Source: Protoeuglena noctilucae
Lineage: Eukaryota
Direction: 5' to 3'
Assembly (NCBI GenBank): GCA_958009085.1
Contig: OY253672.1
Coordinates: 1,426,001 to 1,490,000 of the forward strand
DNA: 64,000 nt
Shown: piece by piece, positions 90 to 62,600 of the stretch
How positions within the stretch are numbered: the first letter of the stretch is position 1
Layout: each line of letters opens with the position of its first letter
Made by a program: the position numbers and the translations under genes
Notes under the pieces: generated by a model
Databases searched by the model: none
Told to the model about the DNA's origin: nothing
Seen by the model: the letters and a program-made list of their open reading frames with translations, nothing else

Positions 90-3000
90 GACGTCGACCC
101 TGCGGCCGGAGAGCGCGTCTTTATCGGGATATCCAACCCGATATCTTGGGGCTGCACTCTGAGGACGCCCACGGACCCGCCCCCGCCCACGCCGCCCCCG
201 GAAGGCGACCCCAGCCTCAGCGCGGAGCCCGATGGCCTGGAGGGGGCCGGGTCGCTGATGGAGAAGGACCGCGGGGAGCTTTTTGAGGGAGATGACAAAG
301 GGGAGAAGGCGGCCGGGGGTGATGGCAAGGGTGGGGACGGCAAGGGCGGGGCGGACGCGAAGGGCGCGGGGGGTGCCGCCGGGGAGCTGTTTGCGACGCG
401 ACCGTCGGCGGACTTGCAACGCTCGAGCCTGGCGACCATTTCGGAAGGCGCGGAGCTGCCGGGGCAGATGGGCCCCGTGACGCTCACGGCGGCGATGGAG
501 GGGTCGCGCAAGCCCATGGTCATCGGTGAGGAGCACGCGGGGGCTCTCACGTCTCGCTTGCTTAACGCATCCATGTAGAATTTAGTTAGGGCTTCACAGC
601 GCACCTCTGCGCATGTGTGGCAAAGGCACCTGCGCAACCTCCCCCGCAGCGCGGGACCTGATCAGCGTGGAGCGCGTCATCATGCGCGCGCACAAGCCGG
701 ACCACCTGCGCACGCACGTGGTGTGCCCGGGGATGGTGTATGGCGGTGGCGAGGACGATCTGGGCCTCCACCCGCTCTTCAAGTTGGTCTTTGAGAGCCC
801 GGACGATCCCCTGAAGCTCCTCACGCCGGGAGCAAACGTGCTCCCGCTCATCCACATCGCCGATCTGGTGGCGTACGTGCAGGGCGTCCTCTCGGGGGCG
901 CCCCCGGAGCGCTACCTGCTGGCGTGCGAGCCGGGCCGGGCGACGCTCAAGGCCGTGTCCCGGGCCATCTCGACGTGCATGGGCGGCGGGCAGCTGGCCC
1001 CCGCGTCGTGGCAGGACGTGCTGGCGAGGCCGGACGTGACGCACCTGCTCATGCACGTGCCGTTCGAGTGCACGCGGCTGCCCGAGGGCCGCGGCCCAAG
1101 TTTCTCCGAGGATGGGTTCCTGGACCGCGTCGAGCAGGTCGCGGAGGAGTACAAGGCCGCCCGGGGTTTGCGGCCGCTGCGGGTCGTGCTCCAGGGACCG
1201 CCTGCCAGCGGCAAGACCCTTTTGGCCACGGCGTCGGCCAAGATCTTTGGGGTGCGAAGGGTCGACCTCAAGACGGTCGTCGAGTGGGCCTACGCGCAGC
1301 CCGAGGGGAGCCCCACGCGCGCGCGCATCGACGCCGTCATGAAGGCGAGCCGGCCCGCGTGTGGCAGTACCCGCGTCGCCGCACTTCCGTCCCACATGCG
1401 CCCATGCATCGCCAGCCCCGCCGCTGCTCACTGAGCGCAAGGGAACCCACCATAGATAGCAGTGGTGTCGCTTTGTCTTGCAGGGCAAGCCCGGTCGCCT
1501 TCCGGACGACCTCCTGGCCCAGACGACTCGGGACTACCTCCTGCAGCCCTCCGTGGCCACGCGGGGGTGGATCCTGGAGAACTTCCCCAAGGCGGTGGCG
1601 CAGGTGGAGCCGCTACTGGCGTCCGAGGCGTACCTGAGGTACAAGGCGGACCTGGCGGCCGCGACGACGTCCAAGGGCAAGCCGGCCAAGGGCTCGTCGC
1701 AGCGTTTGGCGCGCGAGGACATCGCGCCGGTGGCGTACGGGTTCGATTCCAGGCTGGCGCCGACGCACGTGGTGGTGCTCGAGTGCGACGACGCCACGCT
1801 CATGCACCGGACGCGGATGATGGAGTCGCACGAGGCGGGGCTGGCGGCGGCGGCCAAGGAGAGGGGCGAGGTGTTCGCGCCGACACACAACAACGTCAAG
1901 GACGCCGAGCGCCGCAAGAAGCCCTACGCCGACCTGCGTGCGGCAGACAAGAAGGACCTGGAAGACAAGGCAAGTGCCTGGCTACCCTGGGTTGGCATGG
2001 CTGACGATGTGGTGCCACCAGGGCTCTCAGTGCCAGCGTTTAGAGATTGCCACAGCGACACAGTGCAGGGGAGCGCGCGTGCATGTTGATGTGACGCGTC
2101 CCAACGCCGTTGACCTGCTCCGTGTGCAGACGCGCGCGTGGGAGTCGAAGCGCGACGCGCTCGTGCGCACGGCGGACAAGAAGGCCAACTCGAAGGACCC
2201 CCGCGACGCGGACTTCAGTCTGGAAAGGGAGCTGGCGGCGTTGGGGCCTTGCCCGGTGCAGGGCGGCCTCGTGGGGGCCCTCACGGCTGAGGGCGCACCG
2301 CTGACAATCCTCGAGACGAGCACGCCGCCTCCGCCGCCCCCGGAGACCCAGACGGTGGCGAAGAAGGACCCCAGGGCGAAGATGACCAAGGAGGAGGAGG
2401 AGCGCATGGTGAGGCGCGGATGGGCGAGCGAGACGAAGGGCTCGCCTGTGTCAGGGACTCGGGGCATGTTACCCATTTGGGATCAACGACATGCGCAACC
2501 GCTCGATGCTGCGGTTTCCAAGACGTTGCCCGTTCCCACGCTTGTGCGCCTGCCACCCGCCCAGGTCAACGAGCTGCTGTCGGCGGACGTGGAGGCCACA
2601 GGGAAGCGCATCCTGCAGCTCCAGCGCATACTTGGCCTCCCCAGAAACTACACGGGCTTCCCGCAAGAGTGGGACCCCCTCAGGCCCTTGTCGCTCATCC
2701 CACACCTAGCGCTCGCGACCCCCGTCGGAGGTGCGTGGCGTGCGGCATGTGACCACGCTCTGACCTGTCCATCGACGTTTGCTTCAATCCTGCCTCGCTC
2801 ACTTCCTCGCGCGCGCAGGCAGGGCGGGGCCGCGGGCCTCAGCGGACGCAGGCGGTGGCGCGGACGCCCGCCCCGAGTCGGCCAAGCAGGGCCAGGGCCC
2901 ATCGACACGTCAGACGTGGAAGCTCGCGGAACACATTGTGGCGCTGGAGCGGTTCGCCGAAGCCGACGCAAAGCCCCTGCGGTGCGAACCTCGCGCATCG

Positions 3001-3373: not shown

Positions 3374-3794
3374 TCATGTCTTCCCTCCCCCGTCCTTCTG
3401 GTCCTGCCCTCTCAATCGCTCCAAATGCTCCCGGAGCTTCTGCGGGCGCGCGTGCCGTCTTTGCCCACCCGCGCGCCTGGCAGGCCCGGTCCCGCGTTGA
3501 ACACTCGATCAGAAAGGTGCTGTCCTCGTCCAGGTGTCACCTGGGCGAACGGGTCGCTCATGTTGCTGTTTTCCCAGTCCTCCTCCCAAAGCTGTTGGCC
3601 CAGGTCCGTCTTGCCCACGTCCGGGCCCCAGTCCTCCTGTGCCGGATGCTCACGCAAGATGTCTTCGCCAGCAGGGGCGTGGCAGGGTGGGCTGAGCTCG
3701 CGAGGCCGCGCGCCAGCGCCCTCGCCTCCCCAAACTCGTCGAACTCGTCATCGTCCACCAGATCCGGCGCCTGCCCTGCCTGGTTCCCCGACAT
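3374..3794 (-). CDS. SEM1: SEM1/DSS1 proteasome lid subunit (3 exons)
   Basis: Spliced product MSGNQAGQAPDLVDDDEFDEFGE|EDWGPDVGKTDLGQQLWEEDWENSNMSDPFAQ|KLREHLERL... carries the DDDEFxEF and WEEDW motifs of DSS1. First intron has a GC donor (3724-3725). Confidence 0.92.
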
Positions 3795-6987: not shown

Positions 6988-9981
6988 ATGCAGAACTTGC
7001 TCCAAACCATGAAGCTCTTCAGCTGCGTGTGGGGGCAGCGTTGGTCCTCGAGGAAGGGCAGTCGAGGTGCGTCCAAGTCGACGAACGCGCCGGCCTTGCC
7101 GGTCCCCGCCAAGACTGGCGCCGCGCCCAGGGCTGCCCCAGGGAGCACGCTTATTATGCCGGGCCCCTCCGCGGCCGCCTTCCTGCCCAGCGACGCGTAC
7201 GCGGCATCACCTCGTCCCGTGCGGGCCAGGGATAGGGTCAGCGAGTGGCTGGCGGACGTCACGCGCAGCGCCGGGCGCAAGCGGGCGCGGCGCTGGCCCA
7301 CGGGGAGTTCGAACGGGGGACGCGACGTCGCCGCGCAGGCGAGGCGCCCGCTTCGGCTCCCGATGCGAACCACTTTGCTTCCTGTCATCGCGGCTGTCGG
7401 AACCCTCCCGACGCGACGCCCGCAGGCCGCCCCGGACGGGCACGAGGCGTACAGGGAGGCGGACGAGCACCCGCCCGCGGCCGCGGGGCCCTCGCCGCAG
7501 GTCCTCCCGCTCCCGGTCGTCGACCCCAACAACGAGTTGAGCCCCGCGAAGCGCGCAAGCCTCATCCAGCACGCGGTGTGGAACTTCTACTCGCGCTGCG
7601 AGGTCGAAGCGAGTTCGCACGTGGGGTACCCTGCGATGGCGAGGCTCCAGATGGACTTCTCGCCGCTTCTGCCCCTGCACCACCTCAACATCAACAACAG
7701 TGAGCGAGCCGCTGCCTGCTGGGGACGGCGCCGACGATGGCGACCGCCCACATGGGACGCCGCGTGACGTGGCTGCTCCCACCCCATCCCTTCCCGCGCA
7801 GTCGGCGACCCCTTCGTGCCCTCCAACTACCACATCCACTCTCGGGAGTTCGAAGTCGGAGTTTTGCAGTTCTTTGCCGACCTGTACCAGCTGCCCACCG
7901 AGGAGATGTGGGGATACGGTGAGCGGAGCGTGGATTTGACTCTTACTCTTAGTGTGGGGTGGTCGGCCACTGTGCGTGAGCGCATGCTGCGCAGGTGATG
8001 CAGTCCGCGCCAGGCGACATCGGCTGTGACCTGCCCCTCGCGCCGCACTCCCGTCTCGCAGTGACCAATGGGGGCACAGAGGGCTGTCTGATGGGGCTCT
8101 ACACGGGTCGGACCAACCTGCCCGGAGCGCGGCTGTTCTTCTCCAAAGAGGCCCACTACTGCATCCCCAAGGCTGCCCGCCTGCTCAAGTGAGTGAGGCA
8201 GTCCAGACCCGCAGCGAGGTCTCTTTTGGGCCATGGAGTGTCACCCATCCATTCCACTATGGGCTGGTAGTCTTACACGGTCCCCGCATCGCTCCCTCAT
8301 CACTGGCGGTCCTCGCAGCATGGATCACCGGGCCATCGATACGTCGGCGAATGGCGAGGTGGACTACGCGCAGCTGCGTGGCGCGCTGGCGGAGAACCGC
8401 GCGGAGGGGCGCCCGGCGGTGCTGGCCCTCAACATCGGCACGACCGTGCGTGGGGCGATCGACGACATCGACACTGTAGTGGCCATCCTGCGCGAGACGG
8501 GGTACGGTCGCGAGGACTACTACTACATCCACGCGGACGCGGCGCTCTTCGGGATGATGCTGCCGTTTGCAGGGGAGGGCGCCCGCGGCAAGCTGACGTT
8601 CCGCAAGCCCATCGACAGCGTCTCGGTGTCGGGACACAAGTTCATCGGGGTGCCCACGCCCTGCGGCGTCGTGCTGTGCCGGTCGTCGCGCATGGGCCCC
8701 ATGCGCCTCGACGTGGACTACATCGGGACGGTCGATGACACGATCTCCGGGTCCCGGAGCGGCCTCACGAGCGTCTACATGTGGTACGTCCTCTCGATGA
8801 AGGGCGTCCGGGGGTACACGCAGGACGTGAGGAGGGTGCTTTCCATGGCGAGGCAGCTCAAGATCTTGGTGAGGGAGCGGGGCGAGAATAATGGCGCGCT
8901 GGATGGCTGGCTGGGGCGCTGCGAGGTGCTGCGGTAGCAATGGGTCCATCCAATCGGCAGTCGTGGCGGCCCTCATCGTGGCCCCCTGGTTAAGACCAAC
9001 AGTCGTGAACTGTCCTTGTAATACCCTTTATAGGGCTTTCTGATGATGTGACCGCCCTTGCTTTCACCGCAGCTGGAGGACCTGGGGGTGGAGCCCGTGC
9101 TGCTCAACACCTACAGCAACATCGTGGTGTTCAAGAAGCCAGAGGACCCCGCCCTGATCGCCCGCTGGCAGCTGTCAACCAGCGGTGACGTGGCCCACGT
9201 GGTCGTCATGCCCACGATGGAGCTCGACACGCTCACCGCCTTCGTACGCGACTACAAGGCATGCCTCGATGCCAGCGCAGGCAGCGGTGAGCTTCCCCCA
9301 CGCGCAGCTGTACTCGCCAGCGCCCTCGTTGGATCTCCCTGCCGCCCTTGCTCCCTGCCGGCCTCAGGCACAGCTCCGTTCACCCACGCAGGTCGCAACG
9401 GCAACGGCGCCGCGCACAGCCGGCCGGCCTACGAGGCCCCAGCGGGGGACGTGCTCCAATCGCTTTCGAGTGCCAACCTCCAGCCAGTCAGCGACGCCAT
9501 GGCGGCACTCGATATCATCACGGGTGCACCACCGGGCCCCGCCGCGCCGCCCATGCCGCCCCGGGAACGCGCCCGGCCCATCCTCCCGCCCTCGCCGTCT
9601 CCCCAGCCCGGCCCGCACGGCTTCGCGGCCCCGCCCACCTCGCCGCCGCCCCGCGTGCCGCACCCGCCTCGGGACATCCGGGTCGAGGTGCCGCAGAACC
9701 ACTTTGCGAGCGCCCCCGCGGCCGAGCCGTCCCTGCGCAGCTCCGTGGCGGGACCGTCCTCCCCGGGCTGGGACGCGGCTGCCAAGGGCCGGGACGGGGC
9801 GAGCGCTTGGGGCGCCACCCCCGCGCGGCGGCCGGCGCTGCGGCGGGAGATGTCTGGCCTGAGTGGCCGGCACCCGAGCATGCTGCGCCTCGTGTCGGGG
9901 AGCCGTGGGAGCGACGTGGCGGTGTCCCTCGAGTCGGCGCGGACCTGGGACCCTTACGGGAACCTCCCCGCTGCTCGGTGA
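6988..9981 (+). CDS. Group II PLP-dependent decarboxylase, serine/histidine decarboxylase family
   Basis: HVGYP, NINNIGDPF, HSREFEVGVL, WGYVTNGGTEG, YIHADAALFG, PLP lysine motif SVSGHKFIG, TISGSRSG, AHVVVMP. Long low-complexity N- and C-terminal extensions. Start codon uncertain. Confidence 0.9.
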
Positions 9982-10480: not shown

Positions 10481-12345
<1,865 letters not shown>

Positions 12346-15170: not shown

Positions 15171-17515
15171 TCACCGGCTGCGCTGCCCGGTCGGCGTTTG
15201 CCGGCCCTGCGGGTCCGCCTGCGAGCCAGCCACGCTCACGTCCGTCGCCGATCCCCACCCCAGCAGCCCCACGGACTTGCGCAGGGCCTTCTGGGCCGAC
15301 CCCAGCGTCTGGTCCAACGTCCACCGGCCCTGCGAGCGACGCACGGCCCATCTACGGTCGGCGACGTAGTGCCCCGAGCAGATATTCCCGCAGGCGGGGC
15401 CCGCACCCCGCGCTTCCCCCGTCACCTGGCCTCCATCCTGCTCGGATGGCTCCGACATCGGGGCCCTCCTCATATTCCCCTGCGGGCCACGCGAGGGAGG
15501 CAGCCGCCCTCGCATGATGTGCGTACGCAGCCCCCCCGCACCGCGCGCGGCCCTGCCAGCTCACCTCCGACATCTCCACCCCCACCCCCTGAGCCGCCGC
15601 CGGCACCGACACCTCGGATGCCGCCCCGTCGCGACCCCCCGGCGTCCCCGGTCGGCTCCCCGTGGGGGTCCCGGGGCGGGACAGCCCAAAAAGCCCCTGC
15701 AGGCCGCGCCGCCCCCCCGGCGTGCCCTGCCCCGCCAGCGACGCCGCCTCGGGCCGCGCTGCGTCGGCCGTGGACGGGCCGTTCTCCACGTCGGGCGGCT
15801 CGCTGTCGTCGTCCGCCTCGAGCACCTGCCCGTTCTGCTCCCACGGGTCGTGCGGGCACCACCACTTGTGCGCGTCGAGCTGCGACGCCGGGCCCCGCAT
15901 CCGCACGTGCGGCGGCGGCGTGGGCACGCAGCACACGGACCACCAGTTGCGCCCGCAAGACCCCAGGTCGAACGGGTGCCCCTGCCGAGCGTACTTGAAG
16001 TTCTCGTACGTCGTGCGGTTCTTCGACACCAGGAAGCAATGGAGGCCCGTCAGGGGGAGGAGGAAGGCAGTGGCGGGCACTGCGGGGAGGAGGCCGGGGG
16101 GTCCTGAGCCGAGCGACGAGCGCGCCGGCCGCTGCAAAGCCCCTGCGGCGCCCTCGGCTGCGGCGCGGGCGACTCACGGCAGTAGATGAGGATCGCGATG
16201 GCCGCGCCGGACCGCGCCGCGGCGTCCTTGCCGTTGGTGGCCGGGTTGTTGTCCGTGTTGACGATGTGCACGTTGCGTGCGATGTAGGCAGCGCAGATGG
16301 CGCACGTCCAGACGATGTAGCCCAGGGTGCCCATGATGAAGAAGAGGAAGGAGCGGTAGTTGCGCAGCGCGATGGTCGTGCCCGTCCAGGGGCAGTGGTG
16401 GTCGAACTTGTCGTAACTGGGAGTCGATAGCGTGGGGACGAGGTCCGTGTCCAAAAAGCAAGGGCCAGGGGCGCGTCGGTGGGGGCGCGGTAGGCGGCTC
16501 ACCAGTTGTCGTTGATGCTGCAGTGGTGCGCTCGCGGGGGCTGGTACACGCGGGCCGTGTCGTTGTACCGGATCTGGACCGGGCGCCCCCCGTTGATGTA
16601 GACCTCATAGACGCGGCTCATCCCCGGCTGGACGAGCGACGGCAGCCGCGACGGCCGGCGCGGAATGACCCCGGGGTCCATGCAGGACGTGCGGAACAGG
16701 AAGACGAGGCTGCACAGGGCCCAGACGGCCGAAATTGGCACGAAGATGTACGACAGAGAGCCGAAGTCCGCCGCGACGAGCGCGATGAAGATGACGGCGG
16801 GCACGAGGACCAGCGATGCCGTCAGGAACATCATCTTCCAGTCGGGGCCGGACATGCAGCGCCCTCCTGCGGGCAGCGTGCGCGGGCGTCGTGACGTGAC
16901 CCGCCCCGTCGAAGCGGAGTCGCGCCCGGCCCCGCGCGTGCAAGGACGACGCACCGCAAAAGAACTTCTCGTCGCCGTCCCACTGCTCGTAGAGCCGCGG
17001 CTCGGGGGCCTGCTGCTCGGCAACCGCGGACAGGGGCCGCTCCTGCGCCTGCCCCGGGTCCGGCACAGGGGGCCCCTGACGCCGCGGCGCCTCCCCGACG
17101 GTCGTCATCTGCACACTCTGCACGCTCTTGGAGTCCGTGGAAGCGGCGCCGTTCCCGTTCGCGCCCCCGCGTGTCCCCGTCGCTGTCCTGCGGGCCTCCC
17201 GAACGGCGCCCTTCGCATGGCGCGGGCGCAGGCATCCCGTTTGACATGTCTCATCGCCAGGACTGCGGCGCGAACCGCCCGCCGCGGCCTGGGCGCGACA
17301 CGACGCGCCATGGCGCGGCACGGCACTCGCCTGATGGCCCCCCCTCCCCAAAGGTTGAACCCCGTCGGCACGCTGGCACGCACGGCCGGGCCACCTTTGC
17401 CGTTGTGGTCCCCGTTCGCGCCGTCCATCGCACTGTTCGCCGCGCCATTCGCCCCCGCCTTCACGGCCTGCTGCAACGGGCCCGCGGGGGCCGAGTCGCG
17501 CACGCCGGCCGGCAT
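15171..17515 (-). CDS. DHHC protein S-acyltransferase (ERF2/ZDHHC9/plant PAT-like)
   Basis: YEQWDGDEKFFC|GGRCMSGPD, TM helices, DPGVIPR, PPRAHHCS...FDHHCPW...RNYR and the TTYE motif (NRTTYENF). Exact termini uncertain. Confidence 0.93.
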
Positions 17516-25300: not shown

Positions 25301-28300
25301 GACGCGGGGGTGCCGTTGGGGCCGGGGCGCGAGGAGAACCCCGAGGTATCGTCCGCGGACGGTCCGCCGGACTTCTGGAGGCAGCTGCAAGGGAGTGGCA
25401 TGGGGGGCGTGGGGCGTGGGGATCGTATGGGTCTGGCGAACGGGTATGGGCAGGACAGGGGGCCGTTGGCGGACGGGGCGGGCGGGAGAGATGCAGTCGG
25501 GGTGCGTTCGGGGGAGCTGTGGCGGGCAGAGGGGTCCCGGTCAGTGGGAGAGATGCCTGGGGTTGCTGGGAGGAGCATCAGTGAGGCGGAGGGCGGGCAT
25601 GGTGCACTGCACAGCGCGCTGCACAAGGCGTCGTCGTCGGTGCAGGAAACGCTGACGATAAACGGGCGTGGGGGAGGAGCGAGTGTGCAGGGGAGACCGC
25701 GGGCAGGGAGCGCGGGGGCAGCCGTGAGCGAGGGGCGCATGAGGGTCACGGGCCGGGGCAGGGTGGGGAGCGTCGCGAGCAGTTCGGACGGGAGAGGGAG
25801 CGCGGTTGGGCGCGTCGTTGCAGCCGGCGGCGGGTCGGGCGGAGTGACGCGCAGCCGCCCTTCCCGCCGCCTTGCATCGGCGCCGACGGACGGGGTGGCA
25901 GATGGCGCGGCTCTGTTTCAGGCCGCCATCGCCGGGGACATCAACAAGGTGGGACGCATGTGGACGATACATGGTTGGGAATCGCTGTTGCTGTGGCTTT
26001 TGCATCTGCGCGACCTGTGGGCCAGCGAGGGAGGGCACACCCTGGGGCCAGGCGTGGCGCGGATGCCGACTCGTCATCCCTGGCACAGATGGCCTCGTTA
26101 CATGCGCTCCCACGTCCACGCAGGTCAAGCGTCTGGTGCGGCAGGGCGTGAATGCGGATTGGCGGGACCCCGAGCATCGCACCACGGCCGTCCACTGTGC
26201 GGCGATGGGGGGCAGCGTGGCCGTGCTGCAGTTTTTGGTGGAGGTGTGCCGGGTGCCCGCGACCACGAAAGCCAAGGACGGCGCCAACGGTGAGGGGTCT
26301 GCGGTAGCGGGAAGTGGGGGGAATGACTGGGGCAAGGGGTACAGTGAAAGTGATTGAAGGGGAATCTCGTCTGTGCCCGTGGGACGGACCGTTTGACAAA
26401 TGACTGACTGACTGATTGACTGATGGTCACATTATACCGTCCCCTTGTTTCCTGCAGCCATGCACATGGCAGCGGCGGGGGGCAGCTCGGAAGCGGTGCG
26501 CTACCTACACCAGAACTGCCACTTGGACGTCAATTCCAAGGCAAGTGGACTAGTTTTATGTGTTTATATGTGTCATATGTACAGATGAGCAAGTCGATTA
26601 GTTCACATGTGTTCACATGTACAGAATGGCATGGCTACTGTTGCTGCACCCCGCAGGGTCCCCTGGGCTGCACGCCTCTCTTCTTCGCCCAGAGTGAGGA
26701 GGTGGCAGAGGCACTACTGAAGGCGGGGGCTGCGCTGGGACACCTGGACGAGGCGGGCAGGACGGGTGAGCAGCGAGGGCGCAGTTTCAACACATAGTAT
26801 ATACTATATGTCAATGTCTGGATGCGTGTTCACCTTCTACGCCTTTGCAATGCTTCACAAGCCTCGCATCCCACCGTTTGCAAGTTGCCATAAACACACC
26901 CACCCCTGCCGTCCCCTGTAAAGACCCTCTCGCAGCCCTGCAACCGTACACAACCCACCACCCCCTCCCTCCCCGCAGCCCTGCACGTCGCCGCGGCCGC
27001 CGGTCGCTCCGGCGCTCTCTCGGCCCTCCTGCGCCACGCCAGCGACCGAGAGGCCTGCGCCCGCGATGTCCTGACCCGCCGCAGCGTGCTGCACGTGGCC
27101 GTGGAGCAGGGCCAGTCCGCGTGTGTGGAGGCGGCGCTCGCGTCTCCGAGGGCCGCCGTCCTCGCCGCCTTGCCATTCCCATCGGACGCACCGCCCCTCC
27201 ACCACGCTGTGCTCACCAGCGACACGGGGCTCCTCGACGCTTTACTCCGCGCCGGGGCCGACCCCCGCGGCACCAATCGCGTGGGAATCGACGCACTGCA
27301 CCTCGCCCTGCGCCACGGCAAGCTCGGCATGGCCAGGCGAGCGACGGGCGGCAACGCGCGCGGTGTCTGCTGGGCTAAGCTCCACCACACTGTGCTCGCA
27401 GCCCCTTGCTCTCTTATCTCCCCGCATCCGCTCTGTCGTGACCGCTTTGGAAACGATCGTCCCACCCCTGCACACCCTGGCCCACCCCCGCAGCACGCTA
27501 CTGAGCCAATGCCCGAGCATCGACCCGAACCGACTGGACCCCCAGGGCCGGTGCCCGCTGATGCTGGCCGCCGAGAAGGGCTCCGTCGACATCATGATGC
27601 AGCTGGTCGAGCGAGGGGCGGACCCCAACGGCTGCCCCGTCCACCAGGGCCGGCTCCTGTACCCCACGCCGCTGCACGTCGCAGCCGAGGTGAGGCGCAC
27701 ACCGATGCGGTCACTTCCATCTTTCCATGGATCGCTTGTTGCGCCTGCCACCCCGCACCGGCAGTGGCACCAGGAGGAGCAGGAGGGGCTGAGGCAGAAC
27801 TAGCATGGCTGGCCCTCACGCCCCTTCCCCTTCCTCCCTGCCCCTCGCAGGCGGGGCAGCTCGAGGCGGCGGCCTTCCTGATCCGCGCGGGCGCCATCGT
27901 CCAGTCGCGGGACGTGCACGGCCGCACGCCCCTGCACGCGGCGGCGACGTGCGTGCAGGAGACGGGCGGCGCAATGATCCAGCTCCTGGTGCAGTGCGGG
28001 GCCAGCATGCGATCGCAGGACCACCAGAGGCGCACGCCTTTCCACGCCGGTGAGGGCGTGAGCAGAGCAGACAACTCGGCACGATCGGACCACTACCCTG
28101 CCAGCGTAACAGGGCGGTGTCGTGGTGTCGGTCACAGCGATTTACGGCGTCCACGTGTCACCCGCTCTGCGCTCTCTGTTCCCACTCTCTGTTCCCACGC
28201 TGTTCCAGCTCTCCGTCCCCACTCTCTGTCCCCACGTCTCTCCACCCGCAGCGTGCCTGGCGGGCAACCTCCCCGCGGTGTCGGTGATGCTGGAGGACAT

Positions 28301-30300: not shown

Positions 30301-30518
30301 CGTGTTATGACGTGACCGTTTGGGGTTGACACCAGTACCGCTGCTAGTGAGGACCTGTGTCGGACACTTGATCAGACCCCCTTTCTCCCCATAGCGAGGC
30401 TCGCTGTCGACTTGGGATCGATTCAATATTCAGAGAGATCAGCAGCAGCTGGCCCCTGCGCCCTCTGGATAGCGTGCACTCCGCACTGTCAGCCCCAGGT
30501 CATGCACCCTATGCGCTG

Positions 30519-37166: not shown

Positions 37167-39497
37167 ATGAGCGGCGACGCGGGGGATGGCGGGGAGGTCG
37201 GCGCAGGCGCCGCGAACTCCAAGCGCGTGATGAAGCGGAAGAGGGACGCGCAATGCCCGGACGTGGAGGATCTGGCCAAAAAATGGTCCGAAGGCGACAT
37301 CGGGCGAGTGTCGACGCTCACATGCCTCTCAAGGAGCAGTGATTGCTTTACAAACGTCGCCTTCACTTGCGCTGCCCCGCCGTGGCTGTGCAGGAACGCG
37401 CGGCGGCAGCTGCTGGCCTGGTACGACCGCGGACACCGCATCTTGCCATGGAGGAGGAACGCGCACTCGCAACGAGGTGCGCTGGCCTCCCCAGAGCACG
37501 AGGCATTCGAGCTGCAGGGGCCTGTGCATCACTCAGCATTTCTGCCCTTCCATGCAGATGACGCAGGCGGTGGAGCGCCTGCCGACCTCGACGACTCCAC
37601 GTTCGCGTATCGGGTGAGTCCACTTGCGCGCAGAACAGCGTGCTGCGGTCGGCCCACAGCACGTTCATCCCTCCGCCCTGCTCTCGCTCTCATGCCCGCA
37701 GGTTTGGGTCTCCGAGGTCATGCTGCAGCAGACGCGGGTGCAGGCGGTCATATCTTATTTCCAGAAGTGGGTGCAGAGGTGGCCCGACGTCCGAGCGTTG
37801 GCCGCTGCGACGCTCGAAGAGGTCAACGAGGTCAGAGCGCTGTGCCAGGATCACAATCGCAGTTATATTGATGCGGAATGTGTAAAAGCCACAACACAGT
37901 TCCCGGCTGCGGTGTCGCAGGTGTGGGCCGGGCTGGGTTACTACCGGCGTGCACGGTTCTTGCTGGAAGGGGCACAGTACGTCGTGTCGGAGCTGCAGGG
38001 CACCATGCCGAGCACGGCAGAAGGACTGAGGAAGGTCCCCGGCATCGGGCCGTACACCGCGGCTGCTGTCGCGTCCATCGCCTTTGGCCGGGCGGAGGCG
38101 GCGGTGGACGGCAACGTGATACGCGTGGTGGGTGGCAGTGTGCACTGCTGCAGGGCGCATGCACACCGACTCCGTCATGTCCCTGCTGTTATGTTCATCA
38201 TCAGTGCTGTTCTTGTTAGCAAGGAGGTCAGTGCTGTTCTTATCAGCAAGGAGGTAGCCGCCACTGCTAGTCTCCCCACCGCAGGTCAGTCGGCTTTGGG
38301 CGGTGCCGGGGGACGTGAAGAAGGGCGCAGTGGCGAAGAGGATCCAGTCGCTGGCCTCGGAATTTCTCGATAGAGACAGACCGGGGGACTTCAACCAGGC
38401 GATGATGGAGCTGGGGGCCACCGTGTGCGTACCCTCAGGGCAGCCGCAGTGCGGGGTCTGCCCCTTGAGTGGCGTCTGCGTGGCGCGCAAAGAGGAGGCG
38501 GCTTTCCGGGAAAGCGGGGGCGACGTGAGCGCCCCGGACGCCCCCTTAGCCACGCGCTTCCCTCAGAAAGTGGAGAAGAAGGGGCCACGGGATGAGACGG
38601 GTGAGGGAGTGCGTGCGCACAGCATGAACACTGTGCAGCGAAGCACCCCCCAGAAGCGTACCATATCAATACACAGCATCATATAACAGCTGCGTGGATA
38701 CCTTCGCAACCGCAGTGGATGTCCACGTGGTGGAGCTTTGCCCCAGACCTGAGGAGGGGTCCCCTGGCACGGGTGGCACTGTCGATGGGCAGGGTGGCGC
38801 ACCTCCCAAGTACCTTTTGGTGCAGCGTCCCGCCAAGGGCATCCTCGCTGGGCTGTGGGAGTTCCCATCCGTCGTGAGAGAGGGAGCCGATGAGGGTGCG
38901 AGCGACGATGAGGGCGGCAGTGGGGGCGACGCGGCAGAGGAGGCGTATGGGGTGACGGGAGTGGCGACTGGGGCGGACGGGGGAGTGAAAAAACGAGCAG
39001 AGGGTGCTGACGGGGTAGTGGATGGGATAGATAAGGGGAAGCGAGGATCCTCGGCGAAAAGTGCAGACGCGAGGGCGGTGGCTGCGGAGGCGCGGCCCGA
39101 GGGGTCCGATGGGCTGCGGCGGGTCTTGGCAGAGGTGTTTGGCGACGCGGATGTCATCTCCAGCGAGGCGCTGCGGGACCTGGGAGAGGCCGGGACCCTC
39201 ACGCATGTCTTCTCTCATGTGCGGCACACCATGCACGTCAGGCGGTGGCGGTGGGAGCGTGCTGGGGAGCCGGTGGCGCTGGAGGGGGCGCGGGGCGTGC
39301 GGTGGCTGACGGAGGCGGAGCTGGAGAGCGCAGCGCTGACGTCGGGGGTGCAGAAGGTGCGGAAGCTGGTGTTCAAGGCTGGAGGGGAGTCTGGGGGTGC
39401 CAAGGGGGGTGCCAAGGGAGGAAGGAAGTCCAAGGGACGTTCCGAAGGAGAGGGCTCAAGGCAAGGTCGGCAGAGAGCATTGACGGAATTTCTCTGA
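37167..39497 (+). CDS. MUTYH: A/G-specific adenine DNA glycosylase MutY
   Basis: LLAWYD...[27 protein letters not shown], Hh[33 protein letters not shown], 4Fe-4S cysteines, NUDIX-like [10 protein letters not shown] and THVFSH. Confidence 0.97.
38201..38254. repeat. 27-bp tandem duplication in a MUTYH intron
   Basis: tcagtgctgttcttgttagcaaggagg / tcagtgctgttcttatcagcaaggagg. Confidence 0.85.
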
Positions 39498-39993: not shown

Positions 39994-42900
39994 TCAAAAG
40001 GGCGACTCTCGGTCCGTCACGTTCTCCATCGTGTGCGTCCTCGTGTGTGTTGCACGGCTCCCCGTCGGACTCTCAAAGGGCGTCCCTGGGTCATCCATCG
40101 CATCCAAGCCTTCCACCGCATCGCCTCCGCCGCCCCTTGATGCAGCGCTCTCCTGCGGCGGGTAGCAGCTCAGCATGCACCAACGCATGTGCGGTAGCAA
40201 ACACCCCCATGGCCCCACCCAAACAGCCGCTCAGCCATTCATGCAACCAGCCAGCATCTCCGTCCCATTAACCCAATACCCATCGCTCACCTCCTCGCCA
40301 CGCCCGACGGCCAGCACCCCGCTGTGCACGGTGTCGCCCATGCCGCTCAGCCGCCACAAAAACGCGTCGTCCTCCTCCCCCTGCCCCGCCACCTCCCCAG
40401 CTCTCCTCCCGCCTCCGCGCGCCCTGTCGGGTCCCGTGCTATCTCCCAGCCCCTCCTCCTCCCCCACAGGCGCAAGCGTGCGCGAGCTCGCACCCCCATC
40501 CGCCCCAGCCCTGCCCCACCCCCGCGGTGGCTCGCGGCGCCGGTCCCAATCGCCGCCCTGGGCCCCGCTGCCCGGCCCCGCAGACGCAGACGCGCCCCCC
40601 TCGCCCGCCCTCCCGCTGCCCGCTGCAACATCGTCGCCCCGCTCCAGGTCTCTCGCATGCGCATCCAGCAATGAGTCCTGCGAATGTTGACAATATCAGA
40701 AACGAATTGGTAAATACATATACAGCCGAGGGACAAGCGAGGCAGTTCCGCATAGGTCACGGTGGGCGCTACTCGTGCTCTCTGGTAGCTGCTACCCATC
40801 GCTCTCTGCGCCCCCATCCTCGCCTGCAGGTCCACGTTGCGTCTCCTCCGCCAGCTCCTGGACCTCAGCCCGAGGATCTTGGCCCCCAGTTTCTGCCGCA
40901 ATGCCGCTAAGCCCCCGCGCCGCACCGCCGGGACCCGCGCCCCGCCCCTGGCGTCCCCATCCGCCCCGGCACCCGAGGGACCCGCGCTGGCCGACTGGCT
41001 GGCGCGGTGCGCCTGCGTGATGCGCTCCCACCGCCCCAGCGCCCTCCTCTGCCGCCCCTCGGGCCACGGCACGACCAGCGCGGTGCCTGTCAGTGCCAAA
41101 GCAATCGCGACGCCCGGGACAATGGATACGAGGGCCTTGCGGACAAGCCAGACGCGCTCCAGGCCGTCACGGAACTTGCGCGCCAGCTCGGGCGTGATGG
41201 CGGACTCGACCTCGACCTCCATGATAGGGACGATGGACGGAGCGACGGCAGGGTCGATCTGGTTGTAGGGCTCCAGCTGCGTGGAGAGGACGAAGACCTG
41301 CCGCGCCCCCATCGTGATGCCCGTGGTGGGCTCGATGTCGATGAGCGCGGTCGACACCGGGTCGCTGCACCCGTCCAGGCCTTCAACTGCGGCCAGAGCA
41401 CGATGCGGTGCCTGCGTCAGCACATGCGCTTTTAAATCACAGCATGCGCCTCTCCAGGTCCCAGCATGCGTTTGGAGACACGCGCCGTGCCCGGCCACTT
41501 GGCTGGCTGCTACTCCCCAACGTTGCTCAGCTTGCTGCCACTGGCACCCCAACCTTGCTCGCCTTGGGGGAGGTCCTCGGGTCGCACGTGGCAGTAGCCC
41601 TTGCGGCTGATGTAGAGCATCGGGAGCTGCACTGGGACAGTTGGGGGCGCAGCGGAGTCGCTGCTCCGCTGCAGGGTGAGGCGCGAGAAGGGCTCCGTGA
41701 TGTTCCACATGCCCTGGATGCCCTGGTAGAAGTGGTCGTTGCGCGCCCACACGCTCGGGTCGTCCGTGAATCGTATTAGGGGGATGCCCTCGCGGTCCAC
41801 GTGGCCCGCAAAGCGAAGGTCAACAGCGCGGAAACCCTCACGGATCCACTGCGGTGGCGAGAGGGCGTCAGTCGTGAGCAAGCCGCAGCCATGAGCCATA
41901 ATGGCTGTAAGCGGGATGACGTGCGCCGACCAGAGGGGGCAGTCGTGAGCGAGTAGCTGCCATGAGTTATATAATGGCTGTAAGCGGGGTGACGTGGGGT
42001 GCTTCCTGTTCCGTCCCTGTTCCGCAAGCGGCCTCTCACCAGTGCGAGCTTGGCGCTGCGGCCGTCCTTCATGCCAGGGGGCCACTGCGCGCCCGTGGAG
42101 CCCCGGACGGGCTCGCTGGCGGGGCACCCCACGCAGTCTGCGGCCAGGAGCAGGCATGCGTTGCCATGGCGTGTGGATGAGCTCAGCATGGGCGTGTGGC
42201 AGACCCCAGCACACGCGAGTGGTCGAGCTCAACATCAGTACTAAGAACACAACTCAACACCTCGTCTATGCGCCCCCGTGAGCTCTGCCCTCACCGGAGC
42301 GCCATACGTCCAGGGCCGTCATGCCGTTCCACTGCACGAGCCTCCGCACCGCCGCCAAGTCTCTCGCCCCGGTGAGCAGGGCGTCCGGCATCGTGGTGTT
42401 GCGCAGCTCCGCCTCCGTCATGTTGCGCTCGAGGGCGAGGCGGGGGCTGACGTCGGGCAGCCACCGCTTGACCCTCTGCAGGAGCGGGTCCTCGTAGCCC
42501 CACAGGACCTCCCGCGCTGGCCGCGTCATCAGCGTCCCGTGGCAGTGCGACTTGTCCAGCCAGCCCACGAGCTGCTTGAGGATCCAGCCCACCAGCGTGG
42601 GGTGGTTGTAGTACCGCCTCTGCAGCGTCTTGACGATCGAGATGAGCGACAGGTTCGGGGTGGTGATGGGCGCATCAAGCAGGGACACGTCCAGGTCGGG
42701 GCTCTCGTGCATCGTCGTCCATGCCAGATACGTGACGCGGGACTGCGTGTGACGGGGGGAGGGAGCAAAGGCACTGAGAGCCGAGGGCAAGCTCGCTGAG
42801 GCGGACGTGGTGCAAGACCTAAGGCAAGCAATGGCAGGAACGCTGCCGGGGCCAGTGTCCCCGGCCCCGTGAGGCGCGCGCGGCACCTTATCCTCGCTGA

Positions 42901-43454
42901 ACGTCGGATCCAAGGCCCGCTGCCGCATGTGATAGCTGAGGGGGCCCACACGCGTCACGCGGGGCGGGAGGCCCGCGCGGACCTCCTCTGGATTCGTGAT
43001 GTTGAAGAACGTGTAGCGCCGATGAATTGGTGGGTTTTGAGGGTCCCACTTGGAGTCTGCGAGGTCACGCGACGCCGCCAGTGTCTCGCGAACCCTGCGC
43101 AGCGCAGCGCGTGCGACCACCTAGGTCAACAAGCGCTCACCTCGCCACGCATTGAGCAGGGCCGGGTCCATGTCGGGCGATAGAACGATCCTGTCACGTA
43201 TGCCCGCCCGCATTGCTCTGTCGAGGTACCCTGGGCCCAATCGTCCCAAAAGTCCCAACAACACGGCAAAAATTAGCAGTCCACCGCCAGCGACCTGAGA
43301 GCGCGGACGGACAGGCCCTCGTTAAGGGTGAGGATACCAGCAATCGCCAACGCGAGGCCTCTTCCTTCAGCCAGGGGCGGGGGAGCAAGGGGCGCGAAAA
43401 GAAACTGCATCGAACCTGCCGGAACGCCAGCCGAATCTTCATATTCGCAGCCAT
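39994..43454 (-). CDS. CD36 / scavenger receptor class B / LIMP-2 family membrane protein
   Basis: N-terminal TM (MAANMKIRLAFRQ|VAGGGLLIFAVLLGLL), YTFFNITNPEEV...VGPLSY, ITTPNL, REVLWGYEDPLL, VRGSTGAQWPP, IDIEPTTG, C-terminal TM (LVSIVPGVAIALALTGTALVV) and a long tail. Confidence 0.88.
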
Positions 43455-43828
43455 GGTGGACTGCTTCACAGACGACGCTTTCGGTCAACTAGAGCAACGC
43501 ATTCCTAGGCCGCTCTTGTGGAACACCGCTGCGGTCTTCACACCCCCGCGCAGTGGAGCCCTGAGGCGTAGGATGCGCAGGGCAGCTATGTCGTTGAGGA
43601 ACGTGCCGCATAGGTGCCGGGTGAGAGCTGCCTTCATGTTGTTCCACAGCCGGGCTCAGTGCCCTACCTAGGGCAAGCCTGTTTAGCTTTCTTTCCACCG
43701 TCTCGATGGCGCACGTCCCCACAGCAACGACAGAGGTGGCTTTGGTCTTTGCAGAGCATTTGCATTCTTCCGAGAAGACAGGCTGACGGACCTCTCCCAA
43801 GAGTGAGCGAACTCAGCACGCGACAACC

Positions 43829-53692: not shown

Positions 53693-56600
53693 ATGCAGAC
53701 GCTGGGCGGGTCGTGCCACGACCTCCAGGCGCTTGCGCGGGGGCAGGAGCGCAAGTTAGGGGGCGCGGCGGGCGGGGGCGGCCTGCGTCGGACCAAGGTG
53801 ATCATCAGTTACGCTGCGCGCCGCCACCGCCCGCGCCATCGCGGCCCGCGGCGTCGGCAAGGCGCGGCCCAGGTCGCCGGATAAGTTAGCACGCCAGCGA
53901 TGGGCGCCCCCGTCCGCAGCCGCAGCAGCACACGCGCATGGGCGGATCCATTCAAGAGGACTGCGCCAGCGAGGCGCCGTACGCGGGGAGCGACGTGGAG
54001 GAGCGCAGGCCGCGAATGATGGTCGTGTCCAACCAGCTCCCGGTCCGGGTCAAGCCCGCCAAGGAGGACGAGGAGGTGAGGGCGCGGGGCGCCGCGTCCG
54101 CACATGCATTTCCCGTTCCCTATCCCATCGCGACCGCCGGCGGCGCCACCGGCCCTCCCGTGCGCGGCACGGGGCGTGTCTCGACCGTCGCTTGCCTCGC
54201 CGGCTCCCAGGGCGCCGTCGGGGGCTTCCTCTTTGAGTGGGACGAGGACGCGCTGTACGGGCAGGCCAAGGACGGGATTCCGAGCGAGTTTGAGGTCGTC
54301 TATGTGGGTTCGCTGGGCGTGGAGGTCGCACTGCAGGCGCAGGAAAAGGTCTCGACGCACCTGCTTAGCACCTACAACTGCCTGCCCGTCTTCCTCGGGT
54401 CAGACCTGCGGGACAAGTACTACAAGCACTTCTGGTGAGCATTTGATGGGGCAAGGGGGATGGCGAGGACTGCATGAGGTGTGCACTGAGGTGTCGATGC
54501 AGCCAGCGGCGGGGTGCAGCTGGGCTGCCTGCGGTGATATAACGCCTCACACCCTCACGCTGCCTGCCCCCTCGCAGCAAGCTCCAGCTGTGGCCGACGC
54601 TGCACTACGTGCTGCCCATCAGCCCTCACAACCCCCAGCGATTCGACCTGGCCCTCTGGCAGTCGTACATCAAGGCGAACAAGGCCTTCTGCGACCGCAT
54701 CCTCGAGGTCCTCCTGGTTGAGTCGGGTGAGAGCTGTGCATGCATGCATTGAAATGCAAGCCAGGCCAGGCATGCCTGCGTCATTGTCACACCAGAGACG
54801 CGCTGAGGCTATCACAGCACCCCCTGTTGGCGCCCTAGTAGTCTATTGTTGCACACCACCCCCTGTTGATTGTTGCACTCTGCACATAGACTTACATCAG
54901 ACCCACATGTGTTGTTGTGACCCCTATCTCGTCACCCTCCTATTCAGACTACGTGTGGATCCACGACTACCATCTGATGGTCCTCCCGCTGCTCCTGCGC
55001 AAGAGGTTCCACCGCATTCGCGTCGGGTTCTTCCTCCACTCGCCCTTCCCATCCTCCGAGGTGAGCATTGTGTTCTGGAATGCCACTAAACGTGTAGCAT
55101 GTGACAACAACTACGTGTGTAACACAACACGTATAAGTTATCCGATACCAGCCAGCCCTGGGACACCGGCGCCCACCCTGCCGCCGTGCCACGTGCCATC
55201 GCCACCTCCCGCAAAGCTCGCGAGACGCGAGGCTGGGTGACCCCCGCAGCCGTCGCGTCCCTTCTCTCCCCGCAGATCTTCCGTACGTTCCCGAAATGCG
55301 AGGAGCTGCTGCGGTCGCTGCTCAACGCGGACATCATCGGGTTCCACACGTTTGACTATGCCCGCCACTTCCTCTCGTGCTGCTCGCGCATGCTGGGCCT
55401 GGAGCACCACACCAGGCGTGGGTCCATCGTGGTGGAGTACTTTGGGCGCAAGGTGTCGATCAAGATCCTGCCCATCGGGGTCAAGCCGCGCCGGTGAGCG
55501 GTTGGGTGGGGTGAAGCGCCGGGGCTGGTTTGGGCGAAGCGCATGGGCTGGCTCGGGTGAAGTGCTGGCTGGGGTAGAGTGCAGGGTGTTGTGGCTGGGC
55601 TGACTGCATGGATAGAGGAGAGGAGGGGCACGTGGATGGGTGATATGTACTCCCACTAGGGCGCGTCAGGTGCTTGGTGTGACTGACGCATCTGATGCTA
55701 TGCTATGCGATACCATGTCATGCCACGCAGGTATCTGGACGGTTTCGAGTGGCCGGAGTTCAAGTGGCGCAAAGGGGAGCTGGAGAGCCAGTTCGCGGGG
55801 CGGTCGGTGCTGGTGGGGGTGGACGACATGGACCTGTTCAAGGGCATCGAGCTCAAAGTGCAGGCGAGTGTGTCGGTGGGCGGGTGTGTGTGTAGAGGGT
55901 GGGCTTGCTCACAGCATCCAGCACTACGCCGAGGTCGGCAAAGATTGGCCGGCGGGCGTTTACTCTTAAGCAATGGGACGTGTTATCTATCGCAACCTCG
56001 TCTTTTATCAATGGTCCGCAGGCGATGGAGTTGCTCCTGGAGCAGCACTCGGAGATGGCGGGCAAGGCGGTGCTGGTGCAGGTCATCAACCCGGCGCGCT
56101 CAGACACGGCGGAGGTCAAGGAGATGATCCAGTTCATCCGGGTGAGTCGAGACATCGCGTGTCGTTCGCTGGTCTGCGAATGCGATGCAGCGTTGGGAAC
56201 CACGGGCAGCGTTGCGTGCGTGTGCGTGGGCCCGGCCACTGTACTCCCTGCGATGCGACTCTGCGACTGCTTCACCCTCTGTCTTCCACCATCGTTGTCG
56301 CAGGAGACGGCCCAGCGGATCAACCAGCGATTCGGGAGCGGGAGCTACCAGCCGGTGGTGCTGATCGAGCGGGCAATGCCCCTGCACGAACGCATGGCTC
56401 TCTTTACGGTGGCAGAGGTGGCGGTGGTGACGGCCACGAGGGACGGCATGAATCTGCTTCCCTACGAGGTGAGAGGGGGCCGCGTGCGGACGGACTTGTG
56501 ACCCTCGCCACGCTACATGCTGCGCTGTGCGGTGCAGTGCTGTCGCTGCAAGGCCTTCTCGCCAAGGACATCGCCCAATGTCGTTTCGCGGATGTTGTGT

Positions 56601-59634: not shown

Positions 59635-62600
59635 ATGCAGGCGAGCTCCCGCAGGCCCACCGCGCTGCAGCGGTCGAGGGGCGCCCCCGCCCCTCCGATC
59701 GCGGGCCACAGCTCGCTTGCGCTTTGAAGCGTTCCGGAACGCCCTCCTCGTCCCGCGAGACCCACCCCACGCTCCTGGTACGCAGTCGGTGCTGGTGAAC
59801 GGTGGGGTGGCCACGAGCGCCCGCCCCGTCGCGGGGCAGGCCCGCCCGGTGGCCGCGGTTTCGGCGAACGTGCGCGCGGCGTCCAGGGCGGTGATCGCGC
59901 AGGTGGGTGGGCGCGCGAGGGCGTCACGGCAGCCCCCTTGTCTCGGGCTCGTTTGATTCCGGTCGCGGCGCTGATCGTGGGGCTCCGGCCCTGCGCCTTC
60001 CGCGTTGGCTCGGCACGGTCACGAGCTAGCGCAGGGCGGGAGCTCGGCCCGCTTGCGGCCCTGCCGGCTCGCGCCCGTCCCCCCAGCTGGGGCGCGCGAC
60101 GGGCATCTCGGGGAGGGTCCCTTTCCGCCCCCCGCCGAGCCCTGTCCCTTTATATTGCTTCTTTGATGTTGCGGCTGCGGAGACTGCGCTCCCGGGAGGC
60201 ATCCGCGCGCCTGGGGACCCGCCCTGCCCCGGGACCGCTGGGCCCCACGATACGCGTGCGGCCGCGGACCGAATCCCGGCGCCGGGAGGCGGGGCAGAGT
60301 TTTTGGAGGCATCCGCGCGCGTCGAGCTTTCCCCGGGCCCGCACAGGCGTCGCATGGGGCGCGCCGGGCGCCCTAGTACGCCGCCCCCCTCCAGGCTGCG
60401 CGGGAGCTGTCGAGCGGCGTCGCCTGCCCCGCGCGCGTCGTCTCCGTGCCGTTTGATGGCAATGCTGCTGCAAGTTGCCGTCGGCTGGGCCCCACGGCCT
60501 CTGCACGGCGCTCCCGGCGGCCGTACGAGGCCCCTGGCTATCCCCGCCCCGCCCCACCGCGGCGCGCCTCCTCCGCCCCCGCAGGCCACGTCCAAGGTCC
60601 GCGGCGCCGTCAACGCGCCCGATGATGCGGCGCCGGCCCTCATCGGCAAGCCCGCGGCGGCCAAGAAGGTCCCCACGGACCTGCCCCCCGTGGAGCGCAC
60701 CTCCCGCCCCATGAAGATCGTGTTCGTGTCCGCGGAGGTGGCCCCCTGGTCCAAGACCGGCGGCCTCGGCGACGTCGTGGGCGCCCTGCCCCTCGAGCTC
60801 GCCCGCCGCGGCCACAAGGTCATGACGGTGTCGCCCCGCTACGACCAGTACTACGACGCCTGGGACACGTCCGTGACCACCAACATCATGGGCAAGGAGG
60901 TCCGCTACTTCCACACCGGTGAGCGACGCGCTGGACATGCCTGCTTACCATTCTACACGGCTGCGCGATGCGTTCCGCCCGGTACCGTGCCACCGCCTTT
61001 GCATGTCCCGTTATGCAACCACCCCTCCGCCCCCGTCGCCGCGCAGTGGACCAGGGCGTGGACCGCGTGTGGGTGGACAACCCGCTCTTCCTCGCCAAGG
61101 TCTGGGGCAAGACGGGCTCCAAGATCTACGGTGCCAAGGCCGGGGCCGACTACGAGGACAACCAGGTCCGCTTCCGTATCTTCTCGGAGGCCGCGATCGA
61201 GGCCTGCCGCAAGCTGCCCTTCGGCTACGGCGAGGACGTCGTGTTCGTCGCCAACGACTGGCACTCGGCCATGGTGCCCGCCCTCCTCAAGAACGTCTAC
61301 AAGGTGACTTGGCATGCGAATTGGCACGCACGCACGCATGCTTGTATGTGAACTGGGGCTTGTGCTGCCCTCTGCATGGAGACTGTTGATGTGTGTGTGA
61401 GAGCTTGCTATGGTCGTGTCTGCGCAGCAGTCGGGCAGCCAGTGAGTGTTGACGCAGTCGAACGCTCACGGTCCGTCACCGCTTGTACCCCCGCAGCCCC
61501 GCGGCGAGTTTGCCAAGGCCAAGACGGCCTTCTGCATCCACAACATCGCCTTCCAGGGCCGCTTCCCCGACGCCTCGTTCGGCGAGCTGAACCTCCCCGG
61601 CTCGGCCAAGGGCGCCTTCGCGTTCGCCGACTCGGTGCCTTACGACAAGGCGGCCGGCAAGGCCTCGGGCAAGTTCGCCAAGATCAACTGGATGAAGGCC
61701 GGCTTCATGACGGCCGACAAGCTCCTCACCGTGTCGCCCACGTACGCCTCGGAGGTGTCTGCCAACGCCGAGAAGGGCGTGGAGCTCGACGTCGTCATCC
61801 GCGCCGCGGGCGGCATCGAGGGCATCGTGAACGGCATGGACGCCTCGGAGTGGCACCCCAAGAAGGACAAGTACCTGGACGTCAAGTACGACGCCTCCAC
61901 CGTGTTCCAGGTGAGAGGAGTTGAAGGGGTTGGCCCATGGTGCATGTACGGTGGGTCACTGACTGGTGGGGGGGCAGCGCTGCCGCGGGAGCAGCTCAGA
62001 GCAGCGTGTGCCGTAGCGGAGTGGTCATAGAAGCAGCCAGCGTGTGCCGGGCTCCAGTGGCTGACTCTACAACACCGCCATCGCACCCCCCGCAGGGCAA
62101 GGCGGTGGCCAAGGCCACGCTGCAGGCTGAGTGCGGCCTGCCGGTGAACCCCTCCGCGCCGCTGTTTGCCTTCATCGGGCGCCTGGAGGAGCAGAAGGGC
62201 GTGGACATCATGCTCAAGGCGATCCCGGGCATCGTGGCGGCGGGCGGGCAGGTGGTGGTGCTGGGGACGGGCAAGAAGGAGTTCGAGGTGGCGGTGAAGG
62301 CCCTCGAGAAGTCGAACCCGGGCGCCAAGGGCGTGGTCAAGTTCTCGGCCGCCCTGGCCCACATCATCACGGCCGGCGCCGACTTCATGCTGGTGCCGTC
62401 TCGGTTCGAGCCGTGCGGCCTCATTCAGCTGCACGCCATGCAGTACGGCACGGTCCCGGTCGTCGCCTCCACGGGCGGCCTCGTCGACACGGTCAAGGAG
62501 GGCGTGACGGGCTTCCACATGGGCGCGATGGACCCCGACACAGTCACGTCGGCCGACGTGGCTGCTGTCACTGCCGCCTGCCGCAAGGCCATCTCCTCCT

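Follow-up and report, generated by a model that had tools for sequence, protein, structure and literature searches.

Introns that begin with GC rather than GT (GC-AG introns) make up 1.3% of introns overall, with values of 39.6% in Aureococcus anophagefferens, 22.2% in Micromonas pusilla and 7.7% in Chlorella sp., according to the accessible part of Iwata and Gotoh (2011; PMC3033335). The same part of that paper ties a high GC-AG share to high G+C, describes canonical 5' ends of U1 small nuclear RNA (snRNA), and terms the cause an "enigma." The accessible part of a 2024 preprint (bioRxiv 10.1101/2024.10.30.620910) puts Aureococcus at about 14-17% and Pelagomonas calceolata at about 14% and ascribes these values to G+C content. 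The portion of Pucker and Brockington (2018; PMC6310983) that was available holds nothing specific on algae, and a literature search, which did not cover supplements, yielded no paper dealing with how frequent GC-AG introns are in pedinophytes. Abundant GC-AG introns are already in print for several GC-rich algae, and the trait is not new in kind. Here, GC-AG introns are described in a 64,000-nucleotide stretch of Protoeuglena noctilucae DNA (GenBank assembly GCA_958009085.1, contig OY253672.1, positions 1,426,001 to 1,490,000), which we call the window.

A sequence-only reading of the window had proposed unusually frequent GC-AG introns, with a hand count of 16-18 among 110-120 introns. This was confirmed: 10 GC-AG introns were validated and 17 strong ones were counted among about 127 introns, which agrees with the hand count. 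The GC donors are real splice sites with a strict consensus. Very probably, they belong to ordinary U2-type GC-AG introns that became unusually common, via GC-biased substitution, in an intron-dense green alga with 67% G+C. Of the 10 validated introns, four were found with RNA contigs, five by scoring against homologues, and one (SEM1) by reading the frame together with a Pfam boundary.

GC-AG introns in RNA contigs and homologue alignments

The RNA contigs came from four runs (X1-X4) of one marine metatranscriptome study, in which about 45% of the sampled words of positions 24001-34000 are present. Contigs were placed on positions 24001-44000, where 40 joints were counted, and registers were enumerated for each joint. 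Among the 15 of 40 joints that are listed, 12 fit GT..AG and three fit GC..AG alone. The three are donors 26541, 27337 and 41562, all named in the sequence-only reading, and a fourth, 35965, is indicated by contig pieces. In the motifs below, a slash marks the exon-intron boundary.

26541..26656, plus strand: GC-AG intron, ankyrin gene; AAG/GCAAGT; spliced contigs in X1, X3 and X4, only a GC..AG register
27337..27493, plus strand: GC-AG intron, ankyrin gene; CAG/GCGAGC; spliced contigs in X1, X3 and X4, only a GC..AG register
41387..41562, minus strand: GC-AG intron, CD36-family gene; AAG/GCGAGC; X1, X3 and X4, reading CT..GC on the plus strand
35965..36149, plus strand: probable GC-AG intron, PP2A B''-like EF-hand gene; AAG/GCGAGT; from contig pieces

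For the last of these, a piece at 35794-35962 (169 letters) lies to the right of the joint from 35657 to 35794, and X1 and X3 resume at 36148. The joint itself is outside the 15 listed of 40; the only canonical register there is GC..AG, which would give an intron at 35965-36149. One 30-letter loose end was placed uniquely and gave a GT-AG junction from 43843 to 44077 (intron 43844-44076). Of nine other loose-end strings that were searched, seven had no match in the window, and two short ones (8 and 10 letters) fit only at multiple uninformative sites. In all, 17 junctions derive from RNA, four of them GC..AG-only and 13 GT..AG.

An unspliced X2 contig at 26955-27686 spans donor 27337 with no difference from the window, and a second unspliced X2 contig spans the candidate donor at 40823, also with no difference. 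Since these contigs are independent of the assembly and identical to it there, the GC letters at 27337 and 40823 are not assembly errors. Run X2 gave no spliced joints, and its contigs cross introns (e.g., 26955-27686 and 40727-41346); the library contains either DNA carry-over or unspliced RNA. A perfect sense-strand AG/GCAAG at 35877-35883 (plus strand) lies inside the RNA-confirmed exon 35796-35964 and is unused in those contigs. Thus, the motif by itself does not make a donor. In X3, a backward joint runs from 40369 to 40309 with 11 extra letters between its sides, and a loose end at 40523 has no match in the window. These oddities may mean that the 3' part of the CD36-family gene is processed in an alternative or aberrant way.

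In the homology test, every frame-preserving pair of a GT or GC donor and an AG acceptor near a junction was scored against fetched homologues. The five introns identified this way are given together with the SEM1 intron.

10961..11068, minus strand: GC-AG intron, KAE1/OSGEP; AAG/GCGAGG, 108 nt, in frame, stop-free; top of 81 candidates
11722..11805, minus strand: GC-AG intron, KAE1/OSGEP; GAG/GCGAGC, 84 nt, in frame, stop-free; top of 31 candidates
55864..56021, plus strand: GC-AG intron, trehalose-phosphate synthase (TPS); CAG/GCGAGT; top of 56 candidates with a 23-sequence TPS profile
1345..1483, plus strand: GC-AG intron, AK7-like gene; AAG/GCGAGC..TTGCAG/GG; top of 45 candidates
1970..2129, plus strand: GC-AG intron, AK7-like gene; AAG/GCAAGT; first among 60 candidates scored against P0273, the closest homologue
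3637..3725, minus strand: GC-AG intron, SEM1/DSS1; GAG/GCGAGG..GGCACAG/GA, 89 nt; frame reading and Pfam boundary

In KAE1, both donors scored 597.1 bits. The best GT alternative reached 587.4 for donor 11068 and 584.2 for donor 11805, where read-through gave 580.3. The gene has six introns, four GT-AG and two GC-AG, and at each of them the top-scoring candidate also had the best splice consensus. After splicing, the protein aligns without gaps to the homologue P0106 over 332 aa, at 79.8% identity. In TPS, 13 junctions were solved, 12 as GT-AG and one as GC-AG. Donor 55864 reached 72.0 bits, compared to 64.8 and 62.8 for the GT donors 55870 and 55876, which lie 6 and 12 nt downstream. The TPS junction 56743-56937 is poorly resolved (80.1 vs 79.2). 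A shifted-by-one or GC donor at 55061-55065 was considered and rejected, as proper anchors gave an ordinary GT-AG intron at 55061-55275.

Two of the five tested introns of the AK7-like gene are GC-AG, and the tblastn alignment is colinear over both junctions. Donor 1345 scored 94.5 vs 88.2 bits against the homologue profile, and its product is colinear with P0273 (..AALK/GKPGRLPDD). Donor 1970 scored 207 vs 198 against P0273 and was not the top candidate against the distant P0274 or a 4-sequence profile; the gene finder described below places it 26.4 bits above the best GT alternative. In SEM1, removal of the 89 nt fuses an acidic N-terminal exon (MSGNQ..DDDEFDEFGE) in frame with EDW... The first residue of exon 2 corresponds to position 21 of the DSS1_SEM1 profile, and exon 1 alone has no Pfam match. 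A homologue search with the beta-helix open reading frame (ORF) 12762-14105 returned two distant matches only, both to the first beta-helix gene and not the second.

The sequence-only reading had inferred GT-to-GC donor conversion and proposed comparing orthologous introns in related algae for its polarity. Such a polarity is unsupported: when KAE1 exon 4 was used to scan metagenomes, 80 loci came back, mostly intron-poor, and none of the 80 has an intron at either GC-AG position. A donor tally by G+C bin from these loci was set aside, as spurious short "introns" contaminate it. The closest relative is a metagenome contig (L002, positions 1-850, 70% G+C) whose KAE1 is 90% identical over residues 105-336. 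It retains the GT-AG intron I4 and is without introns I5 (GC-AG in the window) and I6. Downstream of KAE1, the contig carries a ubiquitin-L40 gene with a GT-AG intron, where the window has a PLP decarboxylase. Therefore, intron content and gene order vary between close relatives.

Share of GC-AG introns in the window

Introns were tallied with our own exon-chain gene finder, in which codon log-odds are combined with splice-site matrices and with a dinucleotide prior relative to background. Strand blocks were fixed from the Pfam and RNA evidence, and the splice models were partly trained on validated introns. The union of its parse with the 42 validated introns contains 127 introns.

GC donors with the full AG/GCRAG consensus: validated 10, predicted only 7, total 17
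GC donors, other: validated 0, predicted only 6 (doubtful), total 6
GT donors with the full consensus: validated 7, predicted only 7, total 14
GT donors, other: validated 25, predicted only 65, total 90

The 17 consensus-perfect GC-AG introns are 13% of about 127, which bears out for the window the proposed share of roughly ten times the usual ~1%; the validated introns alone set a floor of 10/127 (8%). As a control, 14 other dinucleotides were used as decoys for the second donor. Each decoy gave 5-18 introns, of which 0-5 had strong flanks (two for GA and five for GG), compared to 16 for GC. This control puts the number of real GC-AG introns, as a fair estimate, at about 15-16 in about 120. 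Between 24001 and 44000, 41 introns are parsed, compared to 40 joints from RNA. The gene finder fuses some neighbouring genes, and its per-site scores discriminate poorly, with RNA-confirmed donor 41562 receiving 2.0 bits.

All 14 strong donors named in the sequence-only reading read [ACG]AG/GC[GA]AG on the strand given there. Ten of them are validated, and four (17330, 30848, 40823 and 59641) come from the gene finder only, at 0.3-8.4 bits above the best alternative. These four are given below with the other candidates.

7339..7425, plus strand: candidate GC-AG intron; CAG/GCGAGG, 87 nt, in frame, stop-free; gene finder, 1.9 bits over read-through
17188..17330, minus strand: candidate GC-AG intron, gene labelled DHHC; CAG/GCGAGT; gene finder, 5.5 bits
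24337..24468, minus strand: candidate GC-AG intron, absent from the sequence-only reading; GAG/GCGAGG..CTCCGCAG/CC; gene finder
30701..30848, minus strand: candidate GC-AG intron, second beta-helix gene; AAG/GCGAGT; 3.7 bits over GT donor 30806
40678..40823, minus strand: candidate GC-AG intron, tail of the CD36-family gene; CAG/GCGAGG; 8.4 bits over GT donor 40925
59641..59785, plus strand: candidate GC-AG intron, 5' end of the starch synthase gene; CAG/GCGAGC; 0.3 bits
63542..63715, minus strand: candidate GC-AG intron, first placed at ~63714; CAG/GCGAGC; 3.7 bits over GT donor 63688
37304..37393, plus strand: doubtful GC donor, MutY-like gene; CGG/GCGAGT, no A at -2; refined parse alone

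Four weaker candidates had also been named. The gene finder predicts 7339 and 63714/63715, each with a perfect motif, and 37304, which reads GG/GCGAGT; 59176 was lost in the refined parse. Pfam searches gave no support on either side of 7339-7425 and no usable support on the small exons at 17330. The acceptor for donor 24468 was at 24306 in the first parse and at 24337 in the refined one; that for donor 59641 is also unstable (59729, then 59785). Donors 30848 and 40823 are not among the 15 of 40 RNA joints listed, and 40823 is beyond the end of the CD36 profile and outside the reach of homology.

Donor consensus, position +2 and rival explanations

A strict consensus at donor positions other than +2 is a known signature of U2-type GC-AG introns, as it compensates for the mismatch with U1. 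The sequence-only reading had anticipated such compensation, and the data agree with it: the full AG/GCRAG (A at -2, G at -1, R at +3, A at +4, G at +5) is present in 10/10 validated GC donors vs 7/32 GT donors (Fisher p = 1.3e-5), a contrast in which the GC set was partly selected by motif. Among the RNA-derived junctions alone, the full consensus is found in 4/4 GC donors vs 3/13 GT donors (p = 0.015). G at -1 and a purine at +3 are common to all 32 validated GT donors. Acceptors across the window follow an unusually sharp consensus, with (C/G)GCAG at the end of most introns and often a G after it.

In the consensus-perfect donors, 17 with GC and 14 with GT, C at +2 makes up 17/31 (55%), near the 0.567 measured for C/(C+T) in intron interiors. 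The remaining donors have at most 6 GC in 96 (90 GT). The proposed role of GC-biased substitution fits these values and the composition of the window, which has 63-70% G+C in 4-kb bins and 67% overall.

These values suggest the following mechanism. C at donor +2 would weaken pairing with the 5' end of U1 snRNA and would be tolerated only where all other donor positions match AG/GCRAG. In such perfect donors, T and C at +2 may be nearly interchangeable. If +2 is near-neutral there, GC-biased substitution would fill perfect donors with C, pushing +2 to about the neutral C share, and the GC-AG fraction would be roughly the share of consensus-perfect donors (31/127) times ~0.55. The strict form of this idea, that +2 of AG/GYRAG donors is selectively neutral in this alga, with C at the intronic level while weaker donors keep T, is put forward tentatively, and we judge it somewhat unlikely. 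If it held genome-wide, the GC-AG share would equal the perfect-donor share times the neutral C fraction, a mutation-selection rule. With such a rule, the abundance of GC-AG introns across algae could be predicted from base composition, and the "enigma" of Iwata and Gotoh would be solved with an unchanged spliceosome.

A first alternative is that an altered splicing machinery (the U1 5' end, the U6 ACAGAGA box, or U1-C/Prp8) makes GC a co-equal donor, with no role for composition. The canonical U1 sequence is AUACUUACCUG, and ACAGAGA is the canonical U6 box; an Rfam scan of the window found no snRNA. GC is as frequent as GT in perfect donors (17 vs 14), as co-equal donors would be, and the accessible part of Iwata and Gotoh (PMC3033335) raises U1 small nuclear ribonucleoprotein proteins or RNA base modification as possible causes in other algae. 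However, the GC donors here are confined to the strictest U1-complementary context (10/10), as unchanged U1 pairing predicts, and the U1 5' ends are canonical in Aureococcus and in both Micromonas species (PMC3033335, same part). Altered machinery is therefore improbable.

The GC donors could also have been delivered by intron-generating mobile elements (introners). Huff et al. are said to have found in 2016 that Micromonas pusilla and Aureococcus, both GC-AG-rich, carry introner elements. In a self-BLASTN of the window (word size 11), the only repeats were two short tandem pairs (28778-28901 and 41860-41996) and no intron sequence family was shared, which makes an introner origin very unlikely. 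The median lengths of GC-AG and GT-AG introns are also similar (148 vs 165.5 nt). The two tandem duplications are ~82-83% identical and lie inside introns 28776-28953 and 41849-42039.

The high count could instead be a hand-count artefact of plentiful chance AG/GCRAG motifs, with a true share of 1-2%. About 24 such motifs are expected by chance and 34 were found, decoys yield 5-18 spurious introns, and seven of the strong candidates and all of the weak ones come from the gene finder only or were dropped. Even so, this account has hardly any probability left, given that 10 GC-AG introns (8% of 127) are validated by RNA, homology or reading and that three of the 15 listed RNA joints are GC-AG. 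A U12-type (minor spliceosome) identity, which would call for the donor /[AG]TATCCTT and a strong TCCTTAAC branch site, can be dismissed with near certainty since all GC donors read GC[GA]AG[TCG], the U2-type consensus, and none has the reported U12 donor ATATCC.

Several points weigh against the main reading, in which GC-biased substitution has made ordinary U2-type GC-AG introns common. The bare AGGCRAG count of 34 is not significant compared to 24.4 +/- 5.1 in shuffles, since 5/100 shuffles reach 34; the GC-AG excess rests on validation and on the decoy dinucleotides, not on this count. Third codon positions have a C/(C+T) of 0.857 instead of 0.55, which makes the right neutral reference class uncertain. 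Of the 17 strong GC introns, seven (7339, 17330, 24468, 30848, 40823, 59641 and 63715) come from the gene finder alone, which placed at least one false intron (29201-29404) within an exon confirmed by RNA (28954-29581). The validated set is skewed to genes flagged earlier and the GC claims were picked by motif, so that the share and the consensus contrast both come out too high. Finally, 25 of the 40 RNA joints are outside the listing, and the numbers are small and come from one 64-kb window.

Gene content and comparison with known systems

The window carries intron-rich eukaryotic genes, densely spaced on both strands, with ~2 introns per kb. Pfam searches of exon-sized ORFs supported most of the gene names in the sequence-only reading.

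DSS1/SEM1, TsaD/KAE1, two beta-helix proteins and ankyrin proteins: Pfam matches
PP2A B''-like EF-hand protein, CD36-family protein and trehalose-phosphate synthase/phosphatase: Pfam matches
Starch synthase: Pfam match as Glyco_transf_5 plus Glycos_transf_1
MutY, Brix, SUI1, BTB and PLP decarboxylase: further Pfam matches

The DHHC label (gene at 16502-17104, minus strand) corresponds to a faint Pfam match (E = 1.3) to profile positions 6-25 at the end of the ORF; the domain, if real, would extend into further exons. An assembly gap of 200 N at 50159-50358 lies within a coiled-coil gene on the plus strand. Among named homologues, those of the green alga Pedinophyceae sp. YPF-701 are nearest, with 79.8% identity for KAE1 and 40% for the AK7-like protein.

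Predictors that bar or heavily penalise GC donors would mis-annotate about 1/8 of the introns in this genome. The in-frame, stop-free introns are a particular case, with lengths of 108 and 84 nt in KAE1 and 87 nt for the candidate at 7339-7425. ORF reading and tblastn cross the in-frame GC-AG introns as insertions of 28-36 residues, and the gene finder first missed 10961-11068. Read through silently in this way, such introns lengthen conserved proteins by 28-36 false residues.

With this window, an intron-dense green alga joins the few GC-rich algae in which GC-AG introns are known to be abundant. The window also shows a quantitative pattern: C at +2 in perfect donors only, at about the neutral frequency. 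Its GC..AG ends and a donor consensus stricter than that of GT introns are shared with the U2-type GC-AG introns of plants and animals (~1%). Unlike those, the introns here are about ten times as frequent, and GC is not the minority among perfect donors (17 vs 14). Like the algae of Iwata and Gotoh, the window has high G+C (67%, for the window only, where those algae have ~64% or more). Its GC-AG share of 13%, a value for one 64-kb window and not for the genome, lies between those of Chlorella and Micromonas. Unlike the introner type of Micromonas pusilla and Aureococcus, the introns of the window form no near-identical families in the self-BLASTN. Aureococcus is also intron-poor, with 0.43-0.92 introns per gene in the accessible part of the 2024 preprint, in contrast to the ~2 introns per kb found here. 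The pelagophytes (Aureococcus and Pelagomonas) are closest in GC-AG share, which is nearly equal, and in the proposed cause, G+C. They are stramenopiles, whereas the window has a starch synthase and its nearest named homologues are green-algal.

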